From an uncultured virus (IMG/VR IMGVR_UViG_3300036790_000345) (Duplodnaviria > Heunggongvirae > Uroviricota > Caudoviricetes), in the IMG/VR virus record IMGVR_UViG_3300036790_000345: DNA of 20,000 nt. The stretch is one strand, 5' to 3'. Shown piece by piece: positions 1 to 19,831 of the stretch. Made by a program: the position numbers and the translations under genes. The stretch's first letter is position 1. Each line of letters starts with the position of its first letter. The notes below the pieces were generated by a model. It had not been told where the DNA came from and made no database searches. It worked only from the letters and a program-made list of their open reading frames with translations.

Positions 1-149
1 ATCCCGGCGGCCAGCACCGCCTGGACGACGGTTGCCGGTGCGGCTTTTGCGGTGGCTGGGAGGATGCGGGCGAAGGGTACTGGAGCGACGCCATGACCCG
101 TCAGCTTGAGATCGACGCGGGCATCACCAGGGAGGACGGCGATGGCTGA
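1..149 (+). CDS. 3' end of a hypothetical phage protein (partial)
   Basis: Frame 3 is open from the window edge (...DDGCRCGFCGGWEDAGEGYWSDAMTRQLEIDAGITREDGDG*). Its TGA at 147-149 overlaps the next ATG at 142. Confidence 0.5.
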   Translation, partial: PGGQHRLDDGCRCGFCGGWEDAGEGYWSDAMTRQLEIDAGITREDGDG

Positions 150-459
150 CACCGTCGCCGGGTTCGCCTCGTTCGCCCTGGACCGCCTCGGCGAGCACTT
201 CCCCGGCCACGCCGCCGACCCGGCCCAGCATCTCCTCAAGCTCGGCGAGGAGTACGGGGAGCTGACCGGGGCGTGCATGCGCTACCTCGGCCGCTCCCGC
301 CGCGCCGGGACGCTGGAGGAGGTAGCCGCCGAGGCCGCGGACGTGCTCATCACCCTGCACATCCTCGCCGCGTCCCTGGGCATCGACCTGGACGCCGCGT
401 GGAGGGCCAAGGCGGCCGTGATCGCGGGCAGGCCGTGGCGGGAGGCCGGCGGTGAATGA
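142..459 (+). CDS. MazG-like nucleotide pyrophosphohydrolase
   Basis: Contains KLGEEYGEL...EEVAAEAADVLITL, the EExxE...ExxD all-alpha NTP-PPase motif, followed by LGIDLDAAWRAK. GGAGG RBS precedes ATG 142. Confidence 0.85.
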   Translation: MADTVAGFASFALDRLGEHFPGHAADPAQHLLKLGEEYGELTGACMRYLGRSRRAGTLEEVAAEAADVLITLHILAASLGIDLDAAWRAKAAVIAGRPWREAGGE

Positions 460-630: not shown

Positions 631-1137
631 ATGGCTGAGCCTTGGCCGAAGACAATCCCCGACCCGGCAGACCCTTCCGGGCTGGCCAGCCTGCCGATGC
701 CGGACGAGATGGCTCGCGCAGACCAGTACGTCCCGTCCCGGGCCGAGCTCGACAATGAGGCCTACCTGGTGTCCCGCGGCGTCCGCCCGCTGGCCCTGGC
801 CGGCCACTACCCGGCCGTCCCGCTGGTCATGTGCCGGGTGAAAACCCTGCTGCACCGGGCCCGGCAGTCCGAGCTGGTGATCCCGTTCATTTTCGCCGAG
901 GGCGGCGACCCTGGCTCCGCAGCGTTCGGCTACGCCTCGCACCGCTGGTGCATAGACCTGCTGGAGTGGGCCCTTGACGGCGGCGTGCCGCCGGACCGCA
1001 AGCACGAGATCCTCGGCCTGCTGCTCGGCTACTCGCCGTCATCGATAGCACGGCACCAGGAACGCGGCGAGCTGTGGGCGTACCGGGACGAGGACGAGCG
1101 CGATAAAAATTCCAAGATCAGGTTCCCGGCAAGATGA
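631..1137 (+). CDS. Hypothetical protein with HEILGLLLGYS motif
   Basis: Part of ORF 565..1137; ATG 631 follows a GGAGG RBS. Its stop overlaps the effector ATG (ATGA 1134-1137). Confidence 0.65.
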   Translation: MAEPWPKTIPDPADPSGLASLPMPDEMARADQYVPSRAELDNEAYLVSRGVRPLALAGHYPAVPLVMCRVKTLLHRARQSELVIPFIFAEGGDPGSAAFGYASHRWCIDLLEWALDGGVPPDRKHEILGLLLGYSPSSIARHQERGELWAYRDEDERDKNSKIRFPAR

Positions 1138-2804
1138 AGGAGGCTGGAGTCATGAGCGAACACGCTGAACGCGACGTGCCTCTCATGCGAGCCTTCGCGT
1201 ACGGCTGCCCGGCACGCGCTGACCTGGACGACGCCGGCATCCGCCAGCTCCGGCTGGCGAACCAGCTGTGGAACGCGCTGGTGGAGGCCGAGCACGCGCA
1301 CGAGGACGCGAAGGCCGCGATCTGGGGGCGTGACCCGCGGGTCGCCGCCGCGCAGGAAACGCTCGCCGCCGCGCAGCAGGCCGCGGATGAGATCCGGGAA
1401 CGGATACGCGCCAGCCGGCAGGCTGACCGGACCACGGTGCCCCGTGACGGCGACAAGTCCGCCCTCGCGGCTGCGTCCTCGGCGCGCAGGGAGGCGAAGA
1501 CGGCGCTGGACGCCGCGCGGCAGGCTGCGCTGCCCGGCCTGCGGGAGGCGTTCGGCGAGGCGAAAAAGGCCCGCGCCGCCGCGCACAAGGCCCTGTACAA
1601 GACGTTCGTGCAGGAGAAAGGGCTCGGCTGGGGCACCCACAATGACATCGTGCGCCGCCGGTTTCCTGCTGCGGTGGCGAAGGTGGAGGAACGCCGCAAG
1701 TCGGGCCTGCCCGCGCAACTGCGGTACAGGCGGTTCGATGGCACGGGGACGCTGACGGTGCAGGTTCAGCGGCAGGCCGGGCACCCGCCGCGCACCGTCC
1801 CGGCGCTGAACAGCGGCCGGCACCCGCAGTCCGGTGTCCTGGCCCTGACCCCGTGGCAGGACATGGCAGGCCGGCCGAAGGGCGCTGCGCGGCACGGCAC
1901 GCTCACGGCCAGGATCGGCCGCGGGCGCGGCTTTGACCCGTTGCGGCTGGAGATCCCCGTGGTGCTGGACCGGTACCTGCCGGCGGGCGCGGACGTGTGC
2001 GAGGTGAAGATCAGCCGCCGGGTCACCGGCACCCACGCCCGGCTGTCAGTGTCGGTCGTCTGCCAGGTTCGCGAGCCCGCGCCGCGCGGCGGCCACGCTG
2101 ACGTCGCTGTGCGTCTCGGCTGGAAGTCGGCCGGGGACGGGTGGACCGAGGTAGCGCACATCGGCAGCAGCGACCCGCTCCCGGCACCTCCTGCTGCCAT
2201 TGCCGCGATCACTCGCGTCAGCGGGGACGGCCTGTCAGCGGACGTGCTGTACCCGGCCGAGTGGCGGAAGCTGCTCGAGCGGGACGCGGCCATACGGTCG
2301 GTGCGTGACCAGGATCTGGAGCCGGTGCGGGACAAGGTGACTGTGGCGCTGCGGCAGGACGCCGTGCTTGCGGAGTCCCTGGGCGTGACCGCGGGTGAGG
2401 TGTCGCGGTGGCGGGCACCGCGCAGGTTCGCGGTTCTGGCCCGGTCGTGGCCGGCCGGGCACGAGCTGGCGCCCGTGCTGGAGGAGTGGCGGCGGCGGGA
2501 CAGGCACCTGTACGACTATGAGGCACACGAGCGCGCCCAGGTGACCGCCCGGCGGCGGGACGCGTGGCGGTGCGTGGCGGCGTGGCTGTGCACCGCTGCC
2601 GCCGGGGTCGCGGTTGACGGCCTGGACGTGGCCGCGCTGAAACGCGAGCCGGATGTCAGCCGCGAGGATCCAGAGCAGGCCCGGCGCGGCCGTGCGCAGA
2701 TGCACGCCGCGGCTCCCGGCGAGCTGCGCGCCGCTGTCCTCGCGGCGGCGAAGGCCAGGAAGATACCGGTTACCGTGATACGCAGGAGAAAGGACGAGAC
2801 GTGA
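1134..2804 (+). CDS. cas12m: Cas12m-like type V-M (V-U1) CRISPR effector, predicted nuclease-dead, C-terminally truncated
   Basis: 556 aa. Motifs QLRLANQLWNALV, a long Ala-rich coiled coil, LRYRRFDGTGTLTVQVQRQAGHPPRT, RYLPAGADV, VAVRLGWKS (RuvC-I), WRAPRRFA, VAVDGLDV (RuvC-II) and AAPGELRAAV run colinear with my recollection of Mycolicibacterium mucogenicum Cas12m (e.g. LRHHRFDGSGTIAVQLQRQAGAPPRT, VALHLGWRS, AAPGGLRASV). A CRISPR array is nearby. Alternative start is ATG 1152 with a GGAG RBS. Confidence 0.85.
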   Translation: MKEAGVMSEHAERDVPLMRAFAYGCPARADLDDAGIRQLRLANQLWNALVEAEHAHEDAKAAIWGRDPRVAAAQETLAAAQQAADEIRERIRASRQADRTTVPRDGDKSALAAASSARREAKTALDAARQAALPGLREAFGEAKKARAAAHKALYKTFVQEKGLGWGTHNDIVRRRFPAAVAKVEERRKSGLPAQLRYRRFDGTGTLTVQVQRQAGHPPRTVPALNSGRHPQSGVLALTPWQDMAGRPKGAARHGTLTARIGRGRGFDPLRLEIPVVLDRYLPAGADVCEVKISRRVTGTHARLSVSVVCQVREPAPRGGHADVAVRLGWKSAGDGWTEVAHIGSSDPLPAPPAAIAAITRVSGDGLSADVLYPAEWRKLLERDAAIRSVRDQDLEPVRDKVTVALRQDAVLAESLGVTAGEVSRWRAPRRFAVLARSWPAGHELAPVLEEWRRRDRHLYDYEAHERAQVTARRRDAWRCVAAWLCTAAAGVAVDGLDVAALKREPDVSREDPEQARRGRAQMHAAAPGELRAAVLAAAKARKIPVTVIRRRKDET

Positions 2805-3334
2805 TGACAGGCCAGATACCGTCCGGGTCGATCGGGCAGCAGCTCCGCGAGGCGCTGAAGGCGGGCGCGACGCCGGAGGATGCGGTCCGCAAGGTGCTCG
2901 GCCCGTTCGGCGCGGTTCTCGCGGAGGCAGGCAATGATCACCTGGTCGGGTATGCGCGGCCGGCGGTGCTGTCGGAGGCGCGGCGGCTGGGCCGTCAGCT
3001 GATCCGCCGGGCGGAGGACCGGTCGTTCGGCGCGGCGCCGGCGTCGCGGGACCGGATGCGGCTGGGGCAGATCGAGTTTCACCTGCCGGATGGCCAGGTG
3101 GTGTCGTGGGCGGATGCGACAGCGGAGCAGCACGGGGCGCGTATCGCGTGGCTGCGGACGTATATCTCCAGCGTGGAGGAGGACCTGGCCCGTCATGAGC
3201 GGGCGGCGAAGCTGCTGGCTGAGCATGGCGCGGCGAAGCTGTCCGACATCCCCGGGTGGGAGGATCTGATCGGCGACGACGCGGACAGCGAAGACGCGGA
3301 TGACGGGGATGCGAGCGCTGAGGCGGTAGCCTGA
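2801..3334 (+). CDS. Hypothetical 177-aa protein between effector and array, acidic C-terminal tail
   Basis: GTGA overlap with the cas12m stop and an upstream AGGAG/AAGGA RBS. Mostly helical-looking sequence with FHLPDGQVVSWADATAEQHGARI and tail DDADSEDADDGD. Confidence 0.8.
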   Translation: MMTGQIPSGSIGQQLREALKAGATPEDAVRKVLGPFGAVLAEAGNDHLVGYARPAVLSEARRLGRQLIRRAEDRSFGAAPASRDRMRLGQIEFHLPDGQVVSWADATAEQHGARIAWLRTYISSVEEDLARHERAAKLLAEHGAAKLSDIPGWEDLIGDDADSEDADDGDASAEAVA

Positions 3335-3478
3335 AAGCCGGGGAGCGCTCGCACGCAGGTCAGGGCGGGTATTGCGCATCTTGACAACTGAACGTATGAG
3401 CGAAAAGGTGTTCGCGGAACGGTCCGCTCGCAGTGGTCCCGCATACCCGCAGGCCAGGTGCCCCGTATTCTGCGAGCC
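3335..3478 (+). promoter_or_regulatory. CRISPR leader region with candidate promoter elements
   Basis: Non-coding and less GC-rich. Contains TTGACA at 3381-3386 and TTGCGC(3372)-N17-TATGAG(3395); neither gives a perfect -35/-10 pair. It lies at the end of the array where repeats are invariant. Confidence 0.5.
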
Positions 3479-4395
3479 GTCGCTATGCCGGCGCAGAGGC
3501 TTCGTATCTGCGAGCGTTGAGGTATTCAGATCGGGCCGATCTGGCGTCCCGGTCGCTATGCCGGCGCAGAGGCTTCGTATCTGCGAGAGGCCCTCCAGCG
3601 TGGAGGCCAGCTCGTCGTCGATGAGTCGCTATGCCGGCGCAGAGGCTTCGTATCTGCGAGAGGCCCTCCAGCGTGGAGGCCAGCTCGTCGTCGATGAGTC
3701 GCTATGCCGGCGCAGAGGCTTCGTATCTGCGAGCGGATCTACGACGTGCTACCGGACGACGAGAAGATCATGTCGCTATGCCGGCGCAGAGGCTTCGTAT
3801 CTGCGAGGATATCAGCTGCTGGCAGTGCGGCCCGGTGTGCGCGGGGTCGCTATGCCGGCGCAGAGGCTTCGTATCTGCGAGGCATCGGTTAGTGCCGTGG
3901 CGGCCGGTCGCCAGCACGTCGCTATGCCGGCGCAGAGGCTTCGTATCTGCGAGTAGTCCACCTTCACGGCTCGCTGGTCGACGTACATGAGGTCGCTATG
4001 CCGGCGCAGAGGCTTCGTATCTGCGAGGGGGGCAAGGCCCATACGCCTGCCTCGACTCGGACGACGTCGCTATGCCGGCGCAGAGGCTTCGTATCTGCGA
4101 GACATCCACTCCGTGAGGTCGGCGCTCGCTAGCTCGCGTCGCTATGCCGGCGCAGAGGCTTCGTATCTGCGAGATGTCGGAGACCGGGGTGACGCGCAAC
4201 TCCGGCTTCGTCGTAATGCCAGCGCAGAGGCTTCGTATCTGCGAGCTGTTGATGTGGCCCACCGCGTCGGCGATCTTGTCGATGTCGTCGCTATGCCAGC
4301 GCAGAGGCTTCGTATCTGCGAGGTACAGTGTGGTGCAGGGGGCGTCTCCGACTCGCAGAGTCGTAATGCCAGCGCAGAGGCTTCGTATCTGCGAG
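3479..4395 (+). CRISPR. CRISPR array: 13 repeats of 36 bp (GTCGCTATGCCGGCGCAGAGGCTTCGTATCTGCGAG) and 12 spacers of 36-41 bp (11 unique)
   Basis: Repeats start at 3479, 3552, 3625, 3698, 3772, 3846, 3918, 3992, 4066, 4138, 4210, 4287 and 4360. The first 10 are identical; the last three carry variants (GTCGTAATGCCAG..., GTCGCTATGCCAG...). A CGCAGA/TCTGCG hairpin ends 2 nt before each spacer. Orientation is inferred from distal degeneration and hairpin position. Confidence 0.98.
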
Positions 4396-4429: not shown

Positions 4430-4759
4430 TTGTCGCAGGTGGACGACGAGGCACTGGCCGCCTTCGGCCGCAGCCTCACTGCCCAGATGGAAGGCGTCCA
4501 GGAATGGATGCGGCAGGCCTTCCATCTGCTCGCCCGCGCGGTCGCCCGGGCCGCAGACGACACGGGCAAGATGCTCGCCGCGGCGTTCAGCTACACCTGG
4601 GACGACCGGCTGCACTATCACGCCCCGGACGCACCCCGCCGGGTGCTTCGCCGCTGCCGGGCCTGTCACCCGGAGGGCAACCCGCTCCCGCTGGCCGTTG
4701 ACGGCAGGGGGTACCGGCGGCGGCAGTCAGCTCGCAGGCGGCGCGGCAGAGGCCAGTGA
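4430..4759 (+). CDS. Hypothetical phage-like protein, possibly a 5'-truncated remnant
   Basis: Coding-like codon usage with a CRACHPEGNP motif and a basic tail. Only a TTG start without an RBS; the frame is open back into the last repeat. Confidence 0.45.
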   Translation: MSQVDDEALAAFGRSLTAQMEGVQEWMRQAFHLLARAVARAADDTGKMLAAAFSYTWDDRLHYHAPDAPRRVLRRCRACHPEGNPLPLAVDGRGYRRRQSARRRRGRGQ

Positions 4760-5701
4760 TGCGGCCAGAGCGTAAACGGGGGAGTGGTCAAGCCGGGAGC
4801 GCATCCGGTCGTAGCGCTCGGTAGTCCGCGGGTCGACGTGGCCGGCTAGCGCCTGCACGTCCCGCAGTGAGCAACCGCGCTCGAGCGCCTCGGTCAGCGC
4901 CGAGTGCCGCAGCGAGTGGGGATGCAGCGCATTCGCCTGCGGCAGTTTCGCCCGCACTGCGATGCGGCGGATCAGCCGGTACAGGCCCGGCTCGTCAAGA
5001 CGCCCGCGGCCGCCATCGCGCGGCGAGGTCGCGAAGAGCGGGCCGTCAATGCGCCCGTCCAGGTAGGCGTCCAGCACGACGCCGACCCACGGCGCGACCG
5101 GCAGGTGCTGGCGCCTGCCGCCCTTCCGGGTGACCGTGAGCACCCGGTGGCCCCCCGTGTGGCCTAGGTCGTTCACATCTGCCGCGAGTACCTCGGTGGT
5201 CCGCGCCCCCGTGGTCAGCATCACGGCGGCGAGGGCGTGCGCCCGGCGCGAGTGCGCCTGGGCCGCCTCGAGGAACGCGACCATCTCCTTGCGGTTCAGC
5301 CACGAGATCGTGTCCTCGTCCTGCTGGCGCTTCGGCCGCTTCATCTCCTTGATCGGGTTGGCTTCCATGTCGCCGGTCTCTGCGGCGTAGCTGAAGAACG
5401 ACGACGACGACGACAGCCGCCGCGCGATGGTCGCCTCGGAGACCGCCCGCGAGCCGTCTTCGCGAACTGTGCGGCGCATCGACTCGGCCCACGCCGCTAC
5501 CTGCCGCCGCGTCGCCGCGAGGACGCTGGTGCCGTGCTCGCCGAGGAATGCCGCGAGAAGCCTGATGTCCTTCGCGTACGCGGTGCGCGTGTTGGCGCCC
5601 GGGTGCTCGAGCAGCCATCCGGTGATGGCGCTCAGGGAGTCGCTGTCTGCGGCGATGACGGCGAGCGCGTCAGGCTCGGCCGCGGCGGGCAAGATCGTCA
5701 T
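4727..5701 (-). CDS. XerC/XerD-like tyrosine recombinase
   Basis: N-terminal SAM-like segment (NTRTAYAKDI...SEATIARRLSS...NP) and a full catalytic set: TGAR, RKGG, HSLRH, AGH and TTERY. No arm-binding N-terminal domain is evident. Confidence 0.92.
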   Translation of the reverse strand: MTILPAAAEPDALAVIAADSDSLSAITGWLLEHPGANTRTAYAKDIRLLAAFLGEHGTSVLAATRRQVAAWAESMRRTVREDGSRAVSEATIARRLSSSSSFFSYAAETGDMEANPIKEMKRPKRQQDEDTISWLNRKEMVAFLEAAQAHSRRAHALAAVMLTTGARTTEVLAADVNDLGHTGGHRVLTVTRKGGRRQHLPVAPWVGVVLDAYLDGRIDGPLFATSPRDGGRGRLDEPGLYRLIRRIAVRAKLPQANALHPHSLRHSALTEALERGCSLRDVQALAGHVDPRTTERYDRMRSRLDHSPVYALAASLASAAPPAS

Positions 5702-5703
5702 GG

Positions 5704-5732
5704 ATGACAGAGTAACAGGAATTATCCTGCAT
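5704..5732. promoter_or_regulatory. dif/XRS-like tyrosine recombinase site
   Basis: ATGACAGAGTAA-CAGGAA-TTATCCTGCAT: imperfect 11-12-bp inverted arms with TAA/TTA inner ends around a 6-bp core, 2 nt upstream of the recombinase ATG. Confidence 0.65.
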
Positions 5733-5807
5733 ACTCCGGAGCGCTGTAGCGCGTCTCTAACCAGCCGCTAGCACTGTTCGCTGCGCAGTCCCGATAGCCT
5801 TTGATCC

Positions 5808-6038
5808 ATGCGGCAGGCCGATCTCGCGGTGATCGCGCAGACCCGTGACGATCTCGCGTCGGGCCGGGCACGGGCGGCGAGGAATGAGGCCAGGATCACC
5901 CAGGCCGAGTTCGCTTCGGTGCTCGGCGTGCACCGGTCCGCGGTCAGCCACTGGGAGTCCGGCCGGTCCGTTCCCTCCGCGCCTCACGCCCTGGCCTACG
6001 GCAGGCTGCTGCGTCAGCTCGGGAAGAAGGCGGCATGA
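5808..6038 (+). CDS. XRE-family helix-turn-helix regulator
   Basis: RAARNEARITQAEFASVLGVHRSAVSHWESGRSVP is a canonical Cro/C1 HTH. Divergent from the tyrosine recombinase. Confidence 0.88.
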   Translation: MRQADLAVIAQTRDDLASGRARAARNEARITQAEFASVLGVHRSAVSHWESGRSVPSAPHALAYGRLLRQLGKKAA

Positions 6039-6078
6039 TGGCCCTCGTCTGCCCGGCAGGCCGCTGCCCGTGCCTCAG

Positions 6079-7680
6079 CTAGACGGGGATGCCGGAGTGC
6101 CCCGGCCCCTGCCATGGCGGTTCCCAGGCGGGGAACACCCGGGCATGGCAGTCCTGCCCGTCCTCGCCGCGCCATGCCACCACCGAGAGGATCAGGCCGG
6201 CCAGCGCGTTCCGGGCCCGGTCCGGGCGCATGGTGTCCCACTCGTCCAGCAGTGTGCGGATGACCGGGTGCACGTCGGGTGCCATGCCGCCGGCCCGCTG
6301 CTGCTCGCGGGCCAGCAAGGTGACGATCCGCTCCCGCTCGGCGAGCAGCTCGGCTCTCGCCCCGGCCCATGCCCGCGCGGGGACGTCCTCCTCGCGTGCC
6401 TGCCGGGCCAGGAGCCGGGCCAGTTCCCGGTCCTTCTTCGCGAGCTCGGCCTCCAGCTGCCCGGCGCTGGCCCGCGCGGCGGAGACCGCCGCCCCGGCCG
6501 CGGCCAGCCCCTGCTCGCCGGCGAGGCGGATGTCCTCGGCGGCGAGCCACGCCAGGACGGCGCCGAGGACGGCGTCGTAGCGGACGCCCCGCCCTCGCGA
6601 GGGACAGTCCTTGTACCGGTCCCAGCGGGAGCACCGCGCCAGCGTCCGTGCCGTGCCGTGCGAGATCTTCAGGACGGCCTTCGCCCCGCAGTGCCCGCAT
6701 TGCAGGAGGCCGGTCAGCGCGTAGCGGGGCGCGCGGGAGCGCGGCGGGGTGGCGCTGACCGCGGCGCGCCGGCGCAGGTACGCCTGCCATTCGGGGGGGC
6801 TGATGACAGGCTCGTGGGCGCCGGCGAGCAGGACCGTGCGTGAGCAGCGGGCCGCCTTGCCGCAGCCGCACGCCGGGTCGTGGACGCGCAGGTACCCGGC
6901 GCCGAACCCGGAGTCGAGGGTGCGCCGGACAAGGTAGGGCGCCCACCTGGTGCCGCGGGTGTTGCGGATCCCCGCGTCGTTGAGCACGGCCGCGATGACG
7001 GCCGGCTGGTCGCCCCGGATGTAGGAGAGGTACATCTCGCGCAGCACCGGCCCGGTCAGCGGGTCGTGCTCGTACCGCTCGCCGGCCGGGTCGGCGGTGT
7101 CGCGGCGGGTGCGGCGCGGGTTCTCGGGATCGGGAACCCGGCCCTTGCGCTCGTAGCCGAACCGGGGCCGGGCCGAGCCGGGCAGGCCCGCGTCGTGGCG
7201 GTGCCGGTGCGCTTCTTTCCACTGCTCGCCGGCCCGGTTGGACTCGAATACGGCGATGTCGAAGAGCATCGAGCGGGTCAGCTGGCCGACCGCGGTCCGG
7301 GCGTCGACGTCCTCGGTGGCGGAGATGAGCTGGCCGCCGGCGTCCTCGACGCGGCCCAGGTTCTCGGCTATGCCGCGGGCGTCGCGGCCGAACCGGCTGT
7401 ACTTCCAGACGATGATCTCGCGGGCTTCCCCGGCTTCGACGCGCTCGATCACCTTCATGATCTTGCGCTTGAAGTTCCTGCCCGTCGCGTCGAGGTCGGT
7501 GACCCAGTCGACGATCCGCCGGCCGTGGACGCGGGCCCAGTTCAGCCCCGCGGCCTTCTGGACTTCAGGGGAGATCGCCTCCTCGCGCCACATCGAGACG
7601 CGTATGTAGCCGATGGCGGGGACCAGGTCCGGGAAGGTAATATCCTGCGCTGTTTCGCGCGTCTTATCCTTGCCGGCCAC
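6079..7680 (-). CDS. Large serine recombinase (phage integrase), about 533 aa
   Basis: GYIRVS catalytic Ser motif, WKYSRFGRD, recombinase domain (PRFGY...LNDAGIRNTRGTRW...GAHEPVIS), zinc ribbon (LTGLLQCGHCG...RC...C) and coiled coil. Start taken as GTG 7680; the ORF-track extension to 8169 is probably spurious. Confidence 0.93.
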   Translation of the reverse strand: MAGKDKTRETAQDITFPDLVPAIGYIRVSMWREEAISPEVQKAAGLNWARVHGRRIVDWVTDLDATGRNFKRKIMKVIERVEAGEAREIIVWKYSRFGRDARGIAENLGRVEDAGGQLISATEDVDARTAVGQLTRSMLFDIAVFESNRAGEQWKEAHRHRHDAGLPGSARPRFGYERKGRVPDPENPRRTRRDTADPAGERYEHDPLTGPVLREMYLSYIRGDQPAVIAAVLNDAGIRNTRGTRWAPYLVRRTLDSGFGAGYLRVHDPACGCGKAARCSRTVLLAGAHEPVISPPEWQAYLRRRAAVSATPPRSRAPRYALTGLLQCGHCGAKAVLKISHGTARTLARCSRWDRYKDCPSRGRGVRYDAVLGAVLAWLAAEDIRLAGEQGLAAAGAAVSAARASAGQLEAELAKKDRELARLLARQAREEDVPARAWAGARAELLAERERIVTLLAREQQRAGGMAPDVHPVIRTLLDEWDTMRPDRARNALAGLILSVVAWRGEDGQDCHARVFPAWEPPWQGPGHSGIPV

Positions 7681-7693
7681 GAACCCAGAGTAT

Positions 7694-7739
7694 CGTCTGT
7701 TTGGGAACGTTGTCGAACGACAACGTTCCCAAACAGACG
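7694..7739. repeat. Perfect 22-bp inverted repeat with central AA; candidate attP of the serine integrase
   Basis: CGTCTGTTTGGGAACGTTGTCG-AA-CGACAACGTTCCCAAACAGACG, 13 nt upstream of the integrase start. The palindrome is directly seen; the attP role is inferred. Confidence 0.7.
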
Positions 7740-7770
7740 GCCCGCGAATGTGCGCCCGAGGGGGGATCCG

Positions 7771-8001
7771 ATGACCACCACTGCCCTGCCGTTCATCTGC
7801 GCGAACGGCCTTACCCGCGCCCAGCGCGCCGGCCGGGCCTGCGCCTTGCCGGACTGCCGCCGCCGCTTCCGCCTCAGCACCTCGTCCTCGCCGCGGGTTA
7901 TCGGCGTCACCACGGGAGGTCGGCCGGTCTGCGCGTGCGCGGACCACGACCTGGCCCTGGTGCTGGAGGCCGTGCCGCTGATCTACGGGGCTGCCCTGTG
8001 A
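7771..8001 (+). CDS. Small Cys/His-containing hypothetical protein (76 aa)
   Basis: ATG 7771 follows GAGGGGG. Contains CALPDC...VCACADH. Divergent from the integrase. Confidence 0.55.
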   Translation: MTTTALPFICANGLTRAQRAGRACALPDCRRRFRLSTSSSPRVIGVTTGGRPVCACADHDLALVLEAVPLIYGAAL

Positions 8002-8183
8002 AACCGGGCACCAGCGAGGGCGGTTTCGCTGCCCGTCAGCGGGCCGGCCTTGACGTGCTCCGCGCCCTGTCCGCCGCGCAGGCGCTCGAGCGTTTCGCGT
8101 CCGCGGACACGGATCTCCTGAACGTCCCGCGCCCGGGTTATCCCGGGCGCGGGCGGCACACAAGATCAACGAAAGGAACCATT

Positions 8184-9340: not shown

Positions 9341-9387
9341 GATTGACCCCGGGACTTCCCGGGCGCCGCCGGGCTTCCTCCTTTCAC

Positions 9388-10709
9388 CAAAACCCCCCGG
9401 AGGATGCCTCGGCCTTCAGGCCGGGGAGGAATCCGGTGCCCGCGCGCAGCGCGGCGTTGTGGTCTTTACAGTCCATCGCACTATCCTGTAAGGGTGCGGA
9501 CGGCGTACCGGTGCCGGGCCTATCCCGACGCAGACCAGCAGGTCATGCTGGCCCGCACGTTCGGATGCGTCCGCGTCGTGTGGAACCGCACCCTCGCCGC
9601 CCGCCACGCCCGCTACGCCGCCGAGCGCAAGGGCACGTCCTATGCGGAAACCGACAGGGCGCTGACCGCGATGAAGAAAGACCCGGACCTGACGTGGCTG
9701 AACGAGGTGTCCTCGGTCCCGCTGCAGCAGGTCCTGCGCCACCAGCACGCCGCTTTCCAGGCATTCTTCGGCAAGCGCGCCCGCTACCCCCGGTTCCGCT
9801 CCCGGCGCGGCAAGCAGTCGGCGCACTTCACCCGGTCGGCGTTCACCCTGCGCGGCGGCGTGCTGCGGCTCGCCAAGACCGCCGCGCCGCTGCCGTTCGC
9901 ATGGTCGTGGCCGGATGCGGACTTGGCCGCGCTCGAACCACTCATGGTCATCGTCTCTCGCGAACCAGACGGCCGCTGGTACGTGACTTTTACCGCCGAT
10001 GTCGCTGCGCTTGAGCCGCCGCCGGAAACAGGGCGCGCCGCAGGCGTGGACCTGGGCGTGAAGGACTTCGCGGTGACCAGCGACGGCCAGAAGATCGCGA
10101 ACCCTCGGCTGCTGGAGCGCAAGGCCCGGAACCTGGCTCGCTACCAGCGGCGGCTCGCCCGCTGCCAGCGCGGCTCCGCGAACCGGGTGAAGGCGAAGAT
10201 GAAGGTCGCCCGCGCCCACCGCAAAGTGCGCCACGCCCGGCAGGACTTCTTGCACCGGGCCAGCGCCAGCCTGGTCCGCGATAATGATGTGATCGTGATC
10301 GAGGATCTCGCCGTGCGCAACATGGTCCGCAACCGGTCGCTGGCCCGTGTCATTTCCGACTGCGGGTGGGGCGAGTTCCGCCGCCAGCTGGAGTACAAGT
10401 GCGAGCGATACGGTCGCACGCTGGTCGTCATCGACCGCTGGTACCCGTCCAGCAAGACCTGCTCGGCGTGCGGGCACCTGCTCGCCGAGCTGAGCCTTTC
10501 CACCCGGACGTGGCGCTGCCCGTCCTGCGGCACCCGGCACGACCGGGACCACAACGCCGCGAAGAACATCCTGGCCGCTGGTCAAGCGGTTACTGCCTGC
10601 GGAGTTGATGTCAGCCATTCCGGGACCTCCCGGGTGCAGTCGGCCGTGAAACAGGAACCCTGGCCGGTGACGGCCGGAATCTCCGTCCTTCAGGGCGGGG
10701 AGTAGTCAA
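9388..10709 (+). mobile_element. IS200/IS605-family element, TnpB-only (IS1341-type)
   Basis: Left end TCAC|CAAAAC followed by GATG and hairpin CCTCGGCCTTCAGGCCGGGG. Right end has GAAT and hairpin CTCCGTCCTTCAGGGCGGGG ending in TCAA (10706-10709). No tnpA between the ends. Confidence 0.82.
9494..10705 (+). CDS. tnpB: RNA-guided endonuclease TnpB
   Basis: N-terminal AYRCRAYP...LARTFGCVRVVWN, RuvC GVDLG / VIEDL / DRDHNAAKNI, and zinc finger CSACG...CPSCG. GTG 9494 lies 6 nt after TATCCT, a possible leaderless start. Confidence 0.95.
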   Translation: MRTAYRCRAYPDADQQVMLARTFGCVRVVWNRTLAARHARYAAERKGTSYAETDRALTAMKKDPDLTWLNEVSSVPLQQVLRHQHAAFQAFFGKRARYPRFRSRRGKQSAHFTRSAFTLRGGVLRLAKTAAPLPFAWSWPDADLAALEPLMVIVSREPDGRWYVTFTADVAALEPPPETGRAAGVDLGVKDFAVTSDGQKIANPRLLERKARNLARYQRRLARCQRGSANRVKAKMKVARAHRKVRHARQDFLHRASASLVRDNDVIVIEDLAVRNMVRNRSLARVISDCGWGEFRRQLEYKCERYGRTLVVIDRWYPSSKTCSACGHLLAELSLSTRTWRCPSCGTRHDRDHNAAKNILAAGQAVTACGVDVSHSGTSRVQSAVKQEPWPVTAGISVLQGGE

Positions 10710-19040: not shown

Positions 19041-19379
19041 GTGATCGTGCCCTGGGCCCACGATAAGGAAAGCCGCAGCCGCTCCGACGCCACCTACCGC
19101 ACATCCGAGTACCGCCGCAACCGGCCGCTCGCCATGAAACGCGACCGCTGGCACTGCCAGATCCGCTACCCGGGCACCTGCATCGGCGCGGCCAGCGAAT
19201 GCGATCACATCATCCCGGTCACCCAGGGCGGCGGCAGCGGCCTGGACAACCTGCGCGCCGCGTGCTCGCCGTGCCACAAGCGCAAGACCGGCAGCGAAGG
19301 CGGCGGCTGGCGCCGCACCAGGGCACAGCGGGACGCCATCCCGGCCGACCCGGCACCACGCCCGGCCACGAACTGGTAG
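19041..19379 (+). CDS. HNH endonuclease (phage packaging-associated type)
   Basis: RDRWHCQIRYPGTCIGAASECDHIIPVTQGGGSGLDNLRAACSPCHKRKT. Confidence 0.92.
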   Translation: MIVPWAHDKESRSRSDATYRTSEYRRNRPLAMKRDRWHCQIRYPGTCIGAASECDHIIPVTQGGGSGLDNLRAACSPCHKRKTGSEGGGWRRTRAQRDAIPADPAPRPATNW

Positions 19380-19381
19380 CC

Positions 19382-19831
19382 ATGCTCACCGTCGTCACCG
19401 GGCCGCCCTGCAGCGGGAAATCAACCTGGGTGAAGCAGCACGCCCGCCCGGGGGACATCGTCATCGACTTCGACGTCATCGCCCAGGCCCTCGGCTCGCC
19501 TTCGGTCCACGGCCACTCCCCCGCGCTCACCCAGGTAGCCGCAGAGGCGAGGCACGCGGCGATCGCGGAGGCGATCACCCAGCACCACAAGGGAGCACGC
19601 GTTTTCGTCGTCGATACTCAGCCCGGCGAAAAACGCCGCTGGCAGTACGATCATGCTGGCGCGAAATGGGTGAACCTCACTGCCACGCCAGACGAGTTGC
19701 ACGCCAGGTGCAGCAGGGAACGGCCGGCCGCCTGGCATGCGAGGATAGACCAGTGGCTCGCGGCGGACGCGGCAGCGGCAGCCGGGAAGCGCATGCCGGA
19801 CCCGCCATCGAGACCGCTCACATCGTGGTAA
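19382..19831 (+). CDS. P-loop NTPase/kinase-like phage protein
   Basis: N-terminal Walker A VVTGPPCSGKSTWV followed by DIVIDFD. This type often sits next to an HNH gene upstream of phage terminase genes. Confidence 0.8.
   Translation: MLTVVTGPPCSGKSTWVKQHARPGDIVIDFDVIAQALGSPSVHGHSPALTQVAAEARHAAIAEAITQHHKGARVFVVDTQPGEKRRWQYDHAGAKWVNLTATPDELHARCSRERPAAWHARIDQWLAADAAAAAGKRMPDPPSRPLTSW

Follow-up and report, generated by a model that had tools for sequence, protein, structure and literature searches.

A Cas12m-like protein without the TNB zinc finger and RuvC-III, and its conserved partner gene, on a candidate temperate-phage-like element

A stretch of 20,000 nucleotides from an uncultured virus (IMG/VR record IMGVR_UViG_3300036790_000345), analyzed in its full length and hereafter referred to as the window, encodes a relative of the type V-M effector Cas12m which ends before the TNB zinc finger and the third RuvC motif (RuvC-III), and whose gene is followed by a conserved partner gene and by a CRISPR array. 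The truncation proved to be a fixed, clade-wide architecture, and the partner gene was found downstream of the tail-less (i.e., zinc-finger-less) cas12m in every such locus with DNA. Judging from the sequences, we consider it probable (about 0.6) that this locus, which comes from soil, represents a natural two-gene variant of type V-M on an actinomycete's temperate-phage-like integrative element.

Identification of a shortened Cas12m relative

The coordinates of all features are collected in Table 1. The likely true start of the cas12m-like gene is ATG 1152, preceded by GAAGGAGG, which gives a product of 550 aa, equal to the 550-aa database record P0003. The protein (isoelectric point 10.2) was matched by no Pfam or NCBIfam model. 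It is nevertheless a Cas12m relative, as its best matches were Cas12m and not Cas12f proteins: a phmmer search of PDB sequences retrieved Cas12m2 (8HHL, 598 aa; E-value 3e-59) and GoCas12m (8PM4; 2.6e-57), with two newer Cas12m entries at weaker scores, and the PADLOC model of Cas12u1 (i.e., V-U1, the former name of type V-M) was matched with an E-value of 3.4e-97 over profile positions 4-487 of 533. An AlphaFold2 model built on 12 homologues (mean predicted local distance difference test score, pLDDT, of 77.4) has the bilobed layout of Cas12m, with WED, REC1, coiled-coil REC2 and an RNase H-like RuvC core, and a Foldseek search with this model retrieved 8hhl_A (E-value 6.9e-37, TM-score 0.60).

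The RuvC residues of Cas12m2 are H317, D485, and D579, and zinc is bound in its TNB by H549, C552, C569, and C572 (PMC10442227); the RuvC residues are H322-D497-D590 in GoCas12m (PMC11013384) and N372-D494-D581 in PmCas12m (bioRxiv 10.64898/2026.03.26.714355). The alignment with Cas12m2 and GoCas12m showed that the proteins are homologous and placed R327 opposite the Cas12m2 histidine, D495 opposite the VLVDD motif and the C-terminus at the equivalent of Cas12m2 residue 543, hence nothing is left of the zinc finger or of the helix with the third aspartate. At the positions of the H/N-D-D triad of Cas12m, the window protein therefore has an arginine, an aspartate (in a column nearly invariant in a second alignment, A2) and no residue at all. 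The HCCC or CCCC zinc finger located in RuvC, which characterizes the TNB of Cas12m, is also missing: in full-length relatives it follows the last strand, which reads KIPVTVI in the window protein; beyond this strand the window protein has only 7 residues, and none of its five cysteines lies in this tail. The C-terminus reads IPVTVIRRRKDET, and the stop codon (2802-2804) overlaps the ATG at 2804 of the next open reading frame (ORF) as TGATG, with AGGAG/AAGGA inside the last cas codons.

A preliminary description, made from the letters of the sequence, had proposed a Cas12m relative more reduced than the characterized ones, with Arg at RuvC-I (where MmCas12m has His) and with neither TNB nor RuvC-III. 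This was confirmed; R327, D495, the C-terminal stop, the stop/start overlap and the ribosome-binding site are all present, and the histidine is H317 of Cas12m2. The statement that no frameshifted remnant lies downstream held as well, since a profile of seven zinc-finger tails matched nothing after the cas gene in six frames; its only match was to the window's unrelated TnpB gene (ORF 9347-10702, E-value 1e-8). With the zinc finger and RuvC-III lost and Arg at RuvC-I, the protein is predicted to be unable to cut DNA, and a binding-only effector, as suggested in that description, would be a reasonable reading, given that only one of the three active-site positions is kept.

The truncation is shared by a clade of relatives

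A word-indexed search returned 32 relatives; 29 were aligned (alignment A1), P0003 (the same protein), the partial P0027 and P0028, and P0034 (739 aa, 52% coverage) being left out, and adding the Cas proteins encoded in L001, L004, and L006 gave 32 aligned relatives. Tail-less proteins make up 25 of these 32; they extend 2-33 residues past the last strand, have no Cys pairs and are encoded by intact ORFs, while the other seven have an H/CxxC...CxxC tail, accompanied by DxD in four of them. The RuvC-I residue among the tail-less proteins is Arg in 18, Asp in five, and Trp and Val in one each; at the RuvC-II column, the Arg/Trp/Val group has Asp in 19 of 20 cases, and the Asp group has Lys, His or Arg, followed by Asp. 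The tail-less split was recovered in 200 of 200 bootstraps of an unrooted neighbor-joining tree (Biopython; 542 of 1041 columns).

Twelve members with 51-60% identity share 118 invariant columns. The ratios of nonsynonymous to synonymous substitutions (dN/dS; NG86 method) of the window against L002 and L004 were 0.49-0.64 for cas12m and 0.49-0.68 for the partner gene, which at about 0.5-0.7 indicates only moderate constraint, dS (0.5-1.3) being near saturation and codon bias strong. Furthermore, a second assembly of a soil-metagenome run, possibly from the same sample, is identical over 1134-3508. The tail-less relatives in a single clade, the invariant columns, the dN/dS values and the second assembly make decay or an artefact very unlikely, so that the earlier suggestion of a fixed architecture rather than recent decay was borne out. 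No member of the tail-less clade was found among viral contigs (searched with patterns from A2), phages or plasmids, the plasmids giving only zinc-finger-type or TnpB-like matches; one match in genome contigs was a full-length form.

Several members of the family carry further peculiarities. The tail-less P0011 (L002:1458-3542) has an insertion of about 80 aa in the WED/RuvC region (A1 columns 320-400), in which a DnaJ-like zinc-finger motif, CxxCxGxG...CxxCxGxG, was recognized by eye. A different insertion occupies the same site in P0021 and P0022, and P0010 and P0013 have insertions elsewhere, which indicates that the tail-less clade tolerates large inserts. In two zinc-finger-bearing relatives, P0029 and P0030, the three RuvC positions are still occupied by Asp, Glu, and DxD, hence the Cas12m family may include active nucleases.

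A partner gene accompanies tail-less cas12m

In the preliminary description, the downstream ORF, whose start overlaps the cas stop codon, served only as a sign of operon packing. What was overlooked is that this ORF is conserved together with the tail-less clade, hence the effector may not be self-sufficient. Using tblastn, the partner was located directly 3' of tail-less cas12m in three loci: the window, L002, whose Cas protein is 59% identical, and L004, where it is 42% identical. In all three loci the stop and start codons overlap (TGATG, TGATG, and ATGA, respectively), a Shine-Dalgarno-like run lies within the last cas codons and an array of one common repeat family comes after the partner.

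A fourth case, L009, was found by an IMG/VR search with the distant partner homologue P0076. This 93,360-bp viral contig, 81% complete according to CheckV, encodes a tail-less Cas12m of 558 aa (44% identical, Asp at RuvC-I, gene end at 4852), followed at once by a repeat-spacer-repeat unit (4853-4966), a 34-nt stretch containing AGGAGG, the partner gene at 5001-5504 and a further six repeats (5662-6068), i.e., the partner gene sits inside the CRISPR array, with two repeats upstream and six downstream. As a distance of 34 nt separates the second repeat from the partner start codon, pre-crRNA (CRISPR RNA) processing could release or regulate the partner mRNA.

Altogether, the partner lies downstream in four of the four tail-less loci with DNA (the window, L002, L004, and L009), at Cas identities of 42-59%, and tblastn did not find it within 6 kb of L001 or L006, the two loci whose Cas12m has a zinc finger; the sequences of L003 and L005 stop within the cas gene. 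Seven more Cas/partner pairs are probably co-resident, as the two members of each have longest contigs of equal length (2577, 2466, 3190, 6127, 9156, 7456, and 35242). The genes upstream of cas12m differ between loci; the conserved module consists of cas12m, the partner gene and the array.

The partner protein and its family

Besides the record of the window itself, 24 close partner homologues were found, i.e., 23 of 167-188 aa with 54-88% identity and one partial. The AlphaFold2 model of the partner is confident (pLDDT 89.5, predicted TM-score 0.64) and consists of five main helices, two of them of about 30 residues, one beta-hairpin, which coincides with the conserved FHLPDGxxVSW, and a tail that is disordered. 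The protein is acidic (isoelectric point 4.9); its last 27 residues have a net charge of -11 and finish with a conserved DASGEVVP.

The model matches no known fold: the best Foldseek hit in PDB had an E-value of 2.1, and in BFVD one of 0.068, to uncharacterized actinophage proteins, whereas the ESM Atlas gave only unnamed, mostly viral clusters. Likewise, no match was obtained in Pfam (including sigma-70 and helix-turn-helix (HTH) families), NCBIfam, PHROGs or PADLOC, and the partner profile reached at best an E-value of 1.2 against PDB sequences. Comparison of 62 of the 149 listed family members with PHROGs and Pfam gave two weak PHROGs of unknown function and two sub-threshold Pfam matches, and the profile had no match in a sample of 401 genomes of the class of G001. 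In the wide partner family a few polar residues (His and Arg at two positions each, Glu and Trp at one each) are nearly invariant, which hints at a specific site in the partner rather than a mere scaffold.

One homologue (L007:6001-6456/L008) is part of a phage early operon, in which a cro-like gene of the HTH type and an ORF of 100 aa precede it; endolysin, serine integrase, and cI-like genes are located beside it. The ORF after it has a GVG-containing, helix-hairpin-helix-like stretch which, by eye, is reminiscent of the C-termini of IS110-type transposases.

The CRISPR array and the structure of its repeats

The array of the window comprises 13 repeats, of which the last three are degenerate; this fits the position of the leader on the opposite side, directly after the partner gene, and transcription of the plus strand. 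The end of the leader (3463-3478) holds GTATTCTGCGAG (about 3465-3476), which resembles the repeat 3' end GTATCTGCGAG and is maybe a degenerate partial repeat before repeat 1. Spacers 2 and 3 (3588-3624 and 3661-3697) are identical 37-mers, pointing to a duplication of a repeat-spacer unit; the duplicated spacer is nearly palindromic. A promoter scan gave 0 sites.

In the crRNA of PmCas12m, positions -23 to -20 pair with -3 to -6, and -28 to -26 with -15 to -17 (bioRxiv 10.64898/2026.03.26.714355). The window repeat can form both helices, i.e., a Cas12m crRNA scaffold is encoded adjacent to the effector gene. Among 11 repeat variants from four loci (seven in a smaller set), the helices are paired in 99 of 99 cells with compensatory change in four of the nine base pairs, a covariation reached by 0 of 500 shuffles; slid controls pair at 26-55%. 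The folding energy of a single repeat is no better than that of shuffles (z = 0.03), hence the case for the structure rests on covariation. No cas1, cas2 or cas4 gene is present in the window, in line with the description of type V-M (PMC10691335).

No protospacer was found for any spacer. The whole array gave only matches with E-values of 0.07-0.9 against phages and plasmids, a 24-nt piece of one spacer had no match in viral contigs and, outside the array, the window contains no self-target at up to eight mismatches. When all 21 spacers of the four loci were compared with the loci of this study, they matched only their own arrays, plus one case of 22 of 23 nt: the PAM-distal 23 nt (PAM, protospacer-adjacent motif) of window spacer 6 (3895-3917) against L006:1391-1413, a GC-rich match on a metagenome contig carrying a full-length Cas12m, which may be due to chance.

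Genomic context

Besides the module, the window encodes a MazG-like protein, two recombinases, a regulator, a TnpB, and a terminase-like ATPase (Table 1), as well as many small ORFs of unknown function. The two integration enzymes lie within 3.5 kb, right after the array, and flank the HTH gene. The complete TnpB shares its element with the zinc-finger-less Cas12m; a neighboring tnpA was not noticed. A tyrosine integrase is also encoded in L004, and in L009 an integrase gene and divergent HTH genes lie just upstream of the module. These integrases and HTH regulators, together with the viral nature of the L009 contig, indicate that the system is carried by temperate phage-like elements.

Table 1. 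Features of the 20,000-nt window.
Feature	Position	Strand	Remarks
MazG-like protein	106-459		
cas12m-like gene without TNB zinc finger and RuvC-III	1134..2804	+	556 aa from ATG 1134
Arg codon, RuvC-I position (His317 in Cas12m2; Asp in TnpB)	2112..2114	+	R327 in VAVRLGW
Asp codon, RuvC-II position (aligned with Cas12m2 VLVDD)	2616..2618	+	D495 in GVAVDGL
Last RuvC beta-strand KIPVTVI	2763..2780	+	AlphaFold2 strand 546-549, alignment A1
Conserved partner gene	2804..3334	+	176 aa; ATG 2804; GTG 2801 also possible
Leader between partner gene and array	3335..3478	+	read by eye
CRISPR array	3479..4395	+	13 repeats of 36 nt, 12 spacers of 36-41 nt
Tyrosine integrase	4727-5701	-	
Cro/cI-type HTH protein	5808-6038		
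Large serine recombinase	6079-8169	-	
Complete TnpB	9404-10705	+	HTH_OrfB_IS605, OrfB_IS605, Cas12f1-like TNB; PHROG transposase, E-value 2e-128
Terminase-small-like ATPase	19199-19831		

Comparison with known systems

With the characterized Cas12m proteins (MmCas12m2 (8HHL), GoCas12m (8PM4), and PmCas12m), the window protein has in common the WED-REC1-REC2-RuvC layout and a degenerate RuvC site, and the loci share a pseudoknotted repeat array, the lack of cas1/cas2/cas4 nearby and carriage by mobile elements. It differs from them in having neither the TNB zinc finger nor the aspartate of the RuvC-III helix (D579, D590, and D581, respectively), in the Arg in place of His/Asn at RuvC-I, and in the conserved extra gene that follows.

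A C-terminal truncation of this kind is already known in two other groups. TldR proteins are likewise RuvC-inactivated relatives of TnpB/Cas12 which have lost the zinc finger and a RuvC segment, retain RNA-guided DNA binding and are often prophage-borne (bioRxiv 10.1101/2023.11.30.569447), a precedent which makes such a truncation compatible with DNA binding. However, TldRs belong to other TnpB branches and use a single omega-type guide with no CRISPR array, and their companion genes, fliC and oppF, are targets or cargo and not the partner family found here; in the window, a 13-repeat array lies beside the gene. The dCas12f-sigma-E systems (PMC13472631) also combine a C-terminally truncated, nuclease-dead miniature Cas12 with a small output partner in one operon, which indicates that a truncated miniature Cas12 can act through an operon partner. 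They are, however, of the Cas12f lineage, their partner is a recognizable sigma-E factor and most of their loci have lost the CRISPR array, whereas the partner in the window, with no Pfam or NCBIfam match, is not recognizable as an extracytoplasmic function sigma factor. Finally, Cas12p, the 'Cas12 hacker' (PDB 9JG3; bioRxiv 10.1101/2025.01.20.633832), is a phage-encoded miniature Cas12 needing a small protein cofactor; that cofactor is the host TrxA and the effector an active nuclease, whereas in the window it is the locus that encodes the candidate cofactor, for an effector predicted to be nuclease-dead.

Possible modes of action

Full-length Cas12m blocks transcription or replication by crRNA-guided DNA binding (PMC10442227, PMC11013384). 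The Cas12m-like protein of the window keeps WED, REC1, REC2, and the RuvC core, and would thus be able to hold a crRNA and form R-loops; its binding at PAM-flanked DNA would block transcription or replication of competing phages and plasmids. The effector and the 176-aa, acidic-tailed helical partner would be expressed from one operon with overlapping stop and start codons, and the partner may work with the effector, either as a subunit or cofactor that stands in for the missing lobe, or in a regulatory or effector role. In this sense, we infer cleavage-free DNA binding, a role against mobile genetic elements and a physical partnership. An engineered deletion of the TNB reduced or abolished the activity of PmCas12m (bioRxiv 10.64898/2026.03.26.714355), which argues against regarding the bare tail-less protein as a ready-made scaffold for CRISPR interference (CRISPRi), a use proposed for it in the preliminary description; taken with the strict gene linkage, it favors a two-protein system, at the probability of about 0.6 given above. 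A more specific version of this reading can be put forward only tentatively, at rather less than even odds: the partner might be a new CRISPR-associated subunit specific to the zinc-finger-less branch of Cas12m, which docks on the truncated RuvC lobe in the role of the TNB or lid, or is an output module delivered by the DNA-bound effector, and in some phages its mRNA, placed between repeats, might be released or regulated by the pre-crRNA processing of Cas12m.

Several observations weigh against the two-protein reading, and part of them would be expected if the tail-less Cas12m were a self-sufficient, binding-only effector and the downstream gene an unrelated phage early gene (e.g., anti-defence or replication-associated). 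The partner-family profile matched 725 representative clusters at E-values of up to 1e-3 (122 at up to 1e-10 and 12 at up to 1e-30), far more than the 32 Cas relatives, and the L007/L008 homologue lies after its cro-like gene with no cas12m, on a 37.9-kb phage record (G402) which is 52% complete; the partner is therefore a wider actinophage early-gene family with its own existence, one branch of which is tied to tail-less Cas12m, and the linkage could partly reflect phage synteny. The cas12m-partner pair of L009 also stands directly after a cro-like gene. Among the best 150 of the 725 profile matches (89-321 aa) there is no Cas12m-partner fusion, and TldR, truncated in a similar way, binds DNA with no dedicated protein partner (bioRxiv 10.1101/2023.11.30.569447). 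Moreover, the constraint seen in dN/dS is only moderate, no protospacers were found, and the PmCas12m experiment implies that tail-less proteins may bind DNA poorly alone. We nevertheless consider self-sufficiency unlikely, since the pair is kept in all four loci down to 42% Cas identity with changing upstream neighbors, the stop and start codons overlap in three of them, CRISPR repeats flank the partner in L009, and the partner is absent from the two zinc-finger-bearing loci. Still less probable is a domesticated RNA-guided regulator of phage or host genes (lysogeny, superinfection, host physiology) with the partner as its transcription-acting part; adjoining integrases and Cro/cI-type regulators, the resemblance to the dCas12f-sigma-E pattern of a truncated RuvC with an operon partner, and the lack of protospacers in phage and plasmid collections would fit it, but the array has 12 spacers (11 distinct) and the ordinary turnover with degenerate distal repeats, no spacer matched the window outside the array (at up to eight mismatches) or the compared loci, and the partner has no sigma-70 or HTH match in Pfam. 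As for a decaying, non-functional remnant or an assembly artefact, the loss of two active-site positions and a whole domain and a dN/dS of only about 0.5 could be read that way; this is largely refuted by the 25 intact ORFs of one clade with a common end point, the 118 columns invariant over 12 sequences with 51-60% identity, the compensatory changes keeping the crRNA structure, the junction reproduced in the second assembly and the lack of a tail remnant in any frame.

Significance

The degenerate active site of type V-M and its 'gradual inactivation' are already in print (PMC10691335). The literature searched described neither a clade of Cas12m without zinc finger nor an accessory gene of type V-M; SI Fig. 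S3A of PMC10691335 might show truncated V-M members. Cas12m, compact and by nature free of nuclease activity, is under development as a scaffold for CRISPRi and for base and epigenome editing. That a whole natural clade exists without TNB and RuvC-III, in spite of the loss of PmCas12m activity on deletion of the TNB, allows two readings: this domain may be dispensable in a suitable sequence context, or a small trans-acting protein may replace it; either answer bears on the minimum size of an effector and on the evolution of Cas12 lobes. The partner is a candidate new cas gene, embedded in the array in one phage, and together with the tail-less Cas12m it makes a further case, after TldR and dCas12f-sigma-E, of the re-use of a truncated RuvC on mobile elements. 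Should the tentative reading of the partner as a new CRISPR-associated subunit hold, the system would be the first of the Cas12m type to depend on an obligate accessory protein, and would offer a miniature DNA-binding effector that is split by nature. On a temperate phage, such a nuclease-free system would spare the phage's own host from DNA damage.

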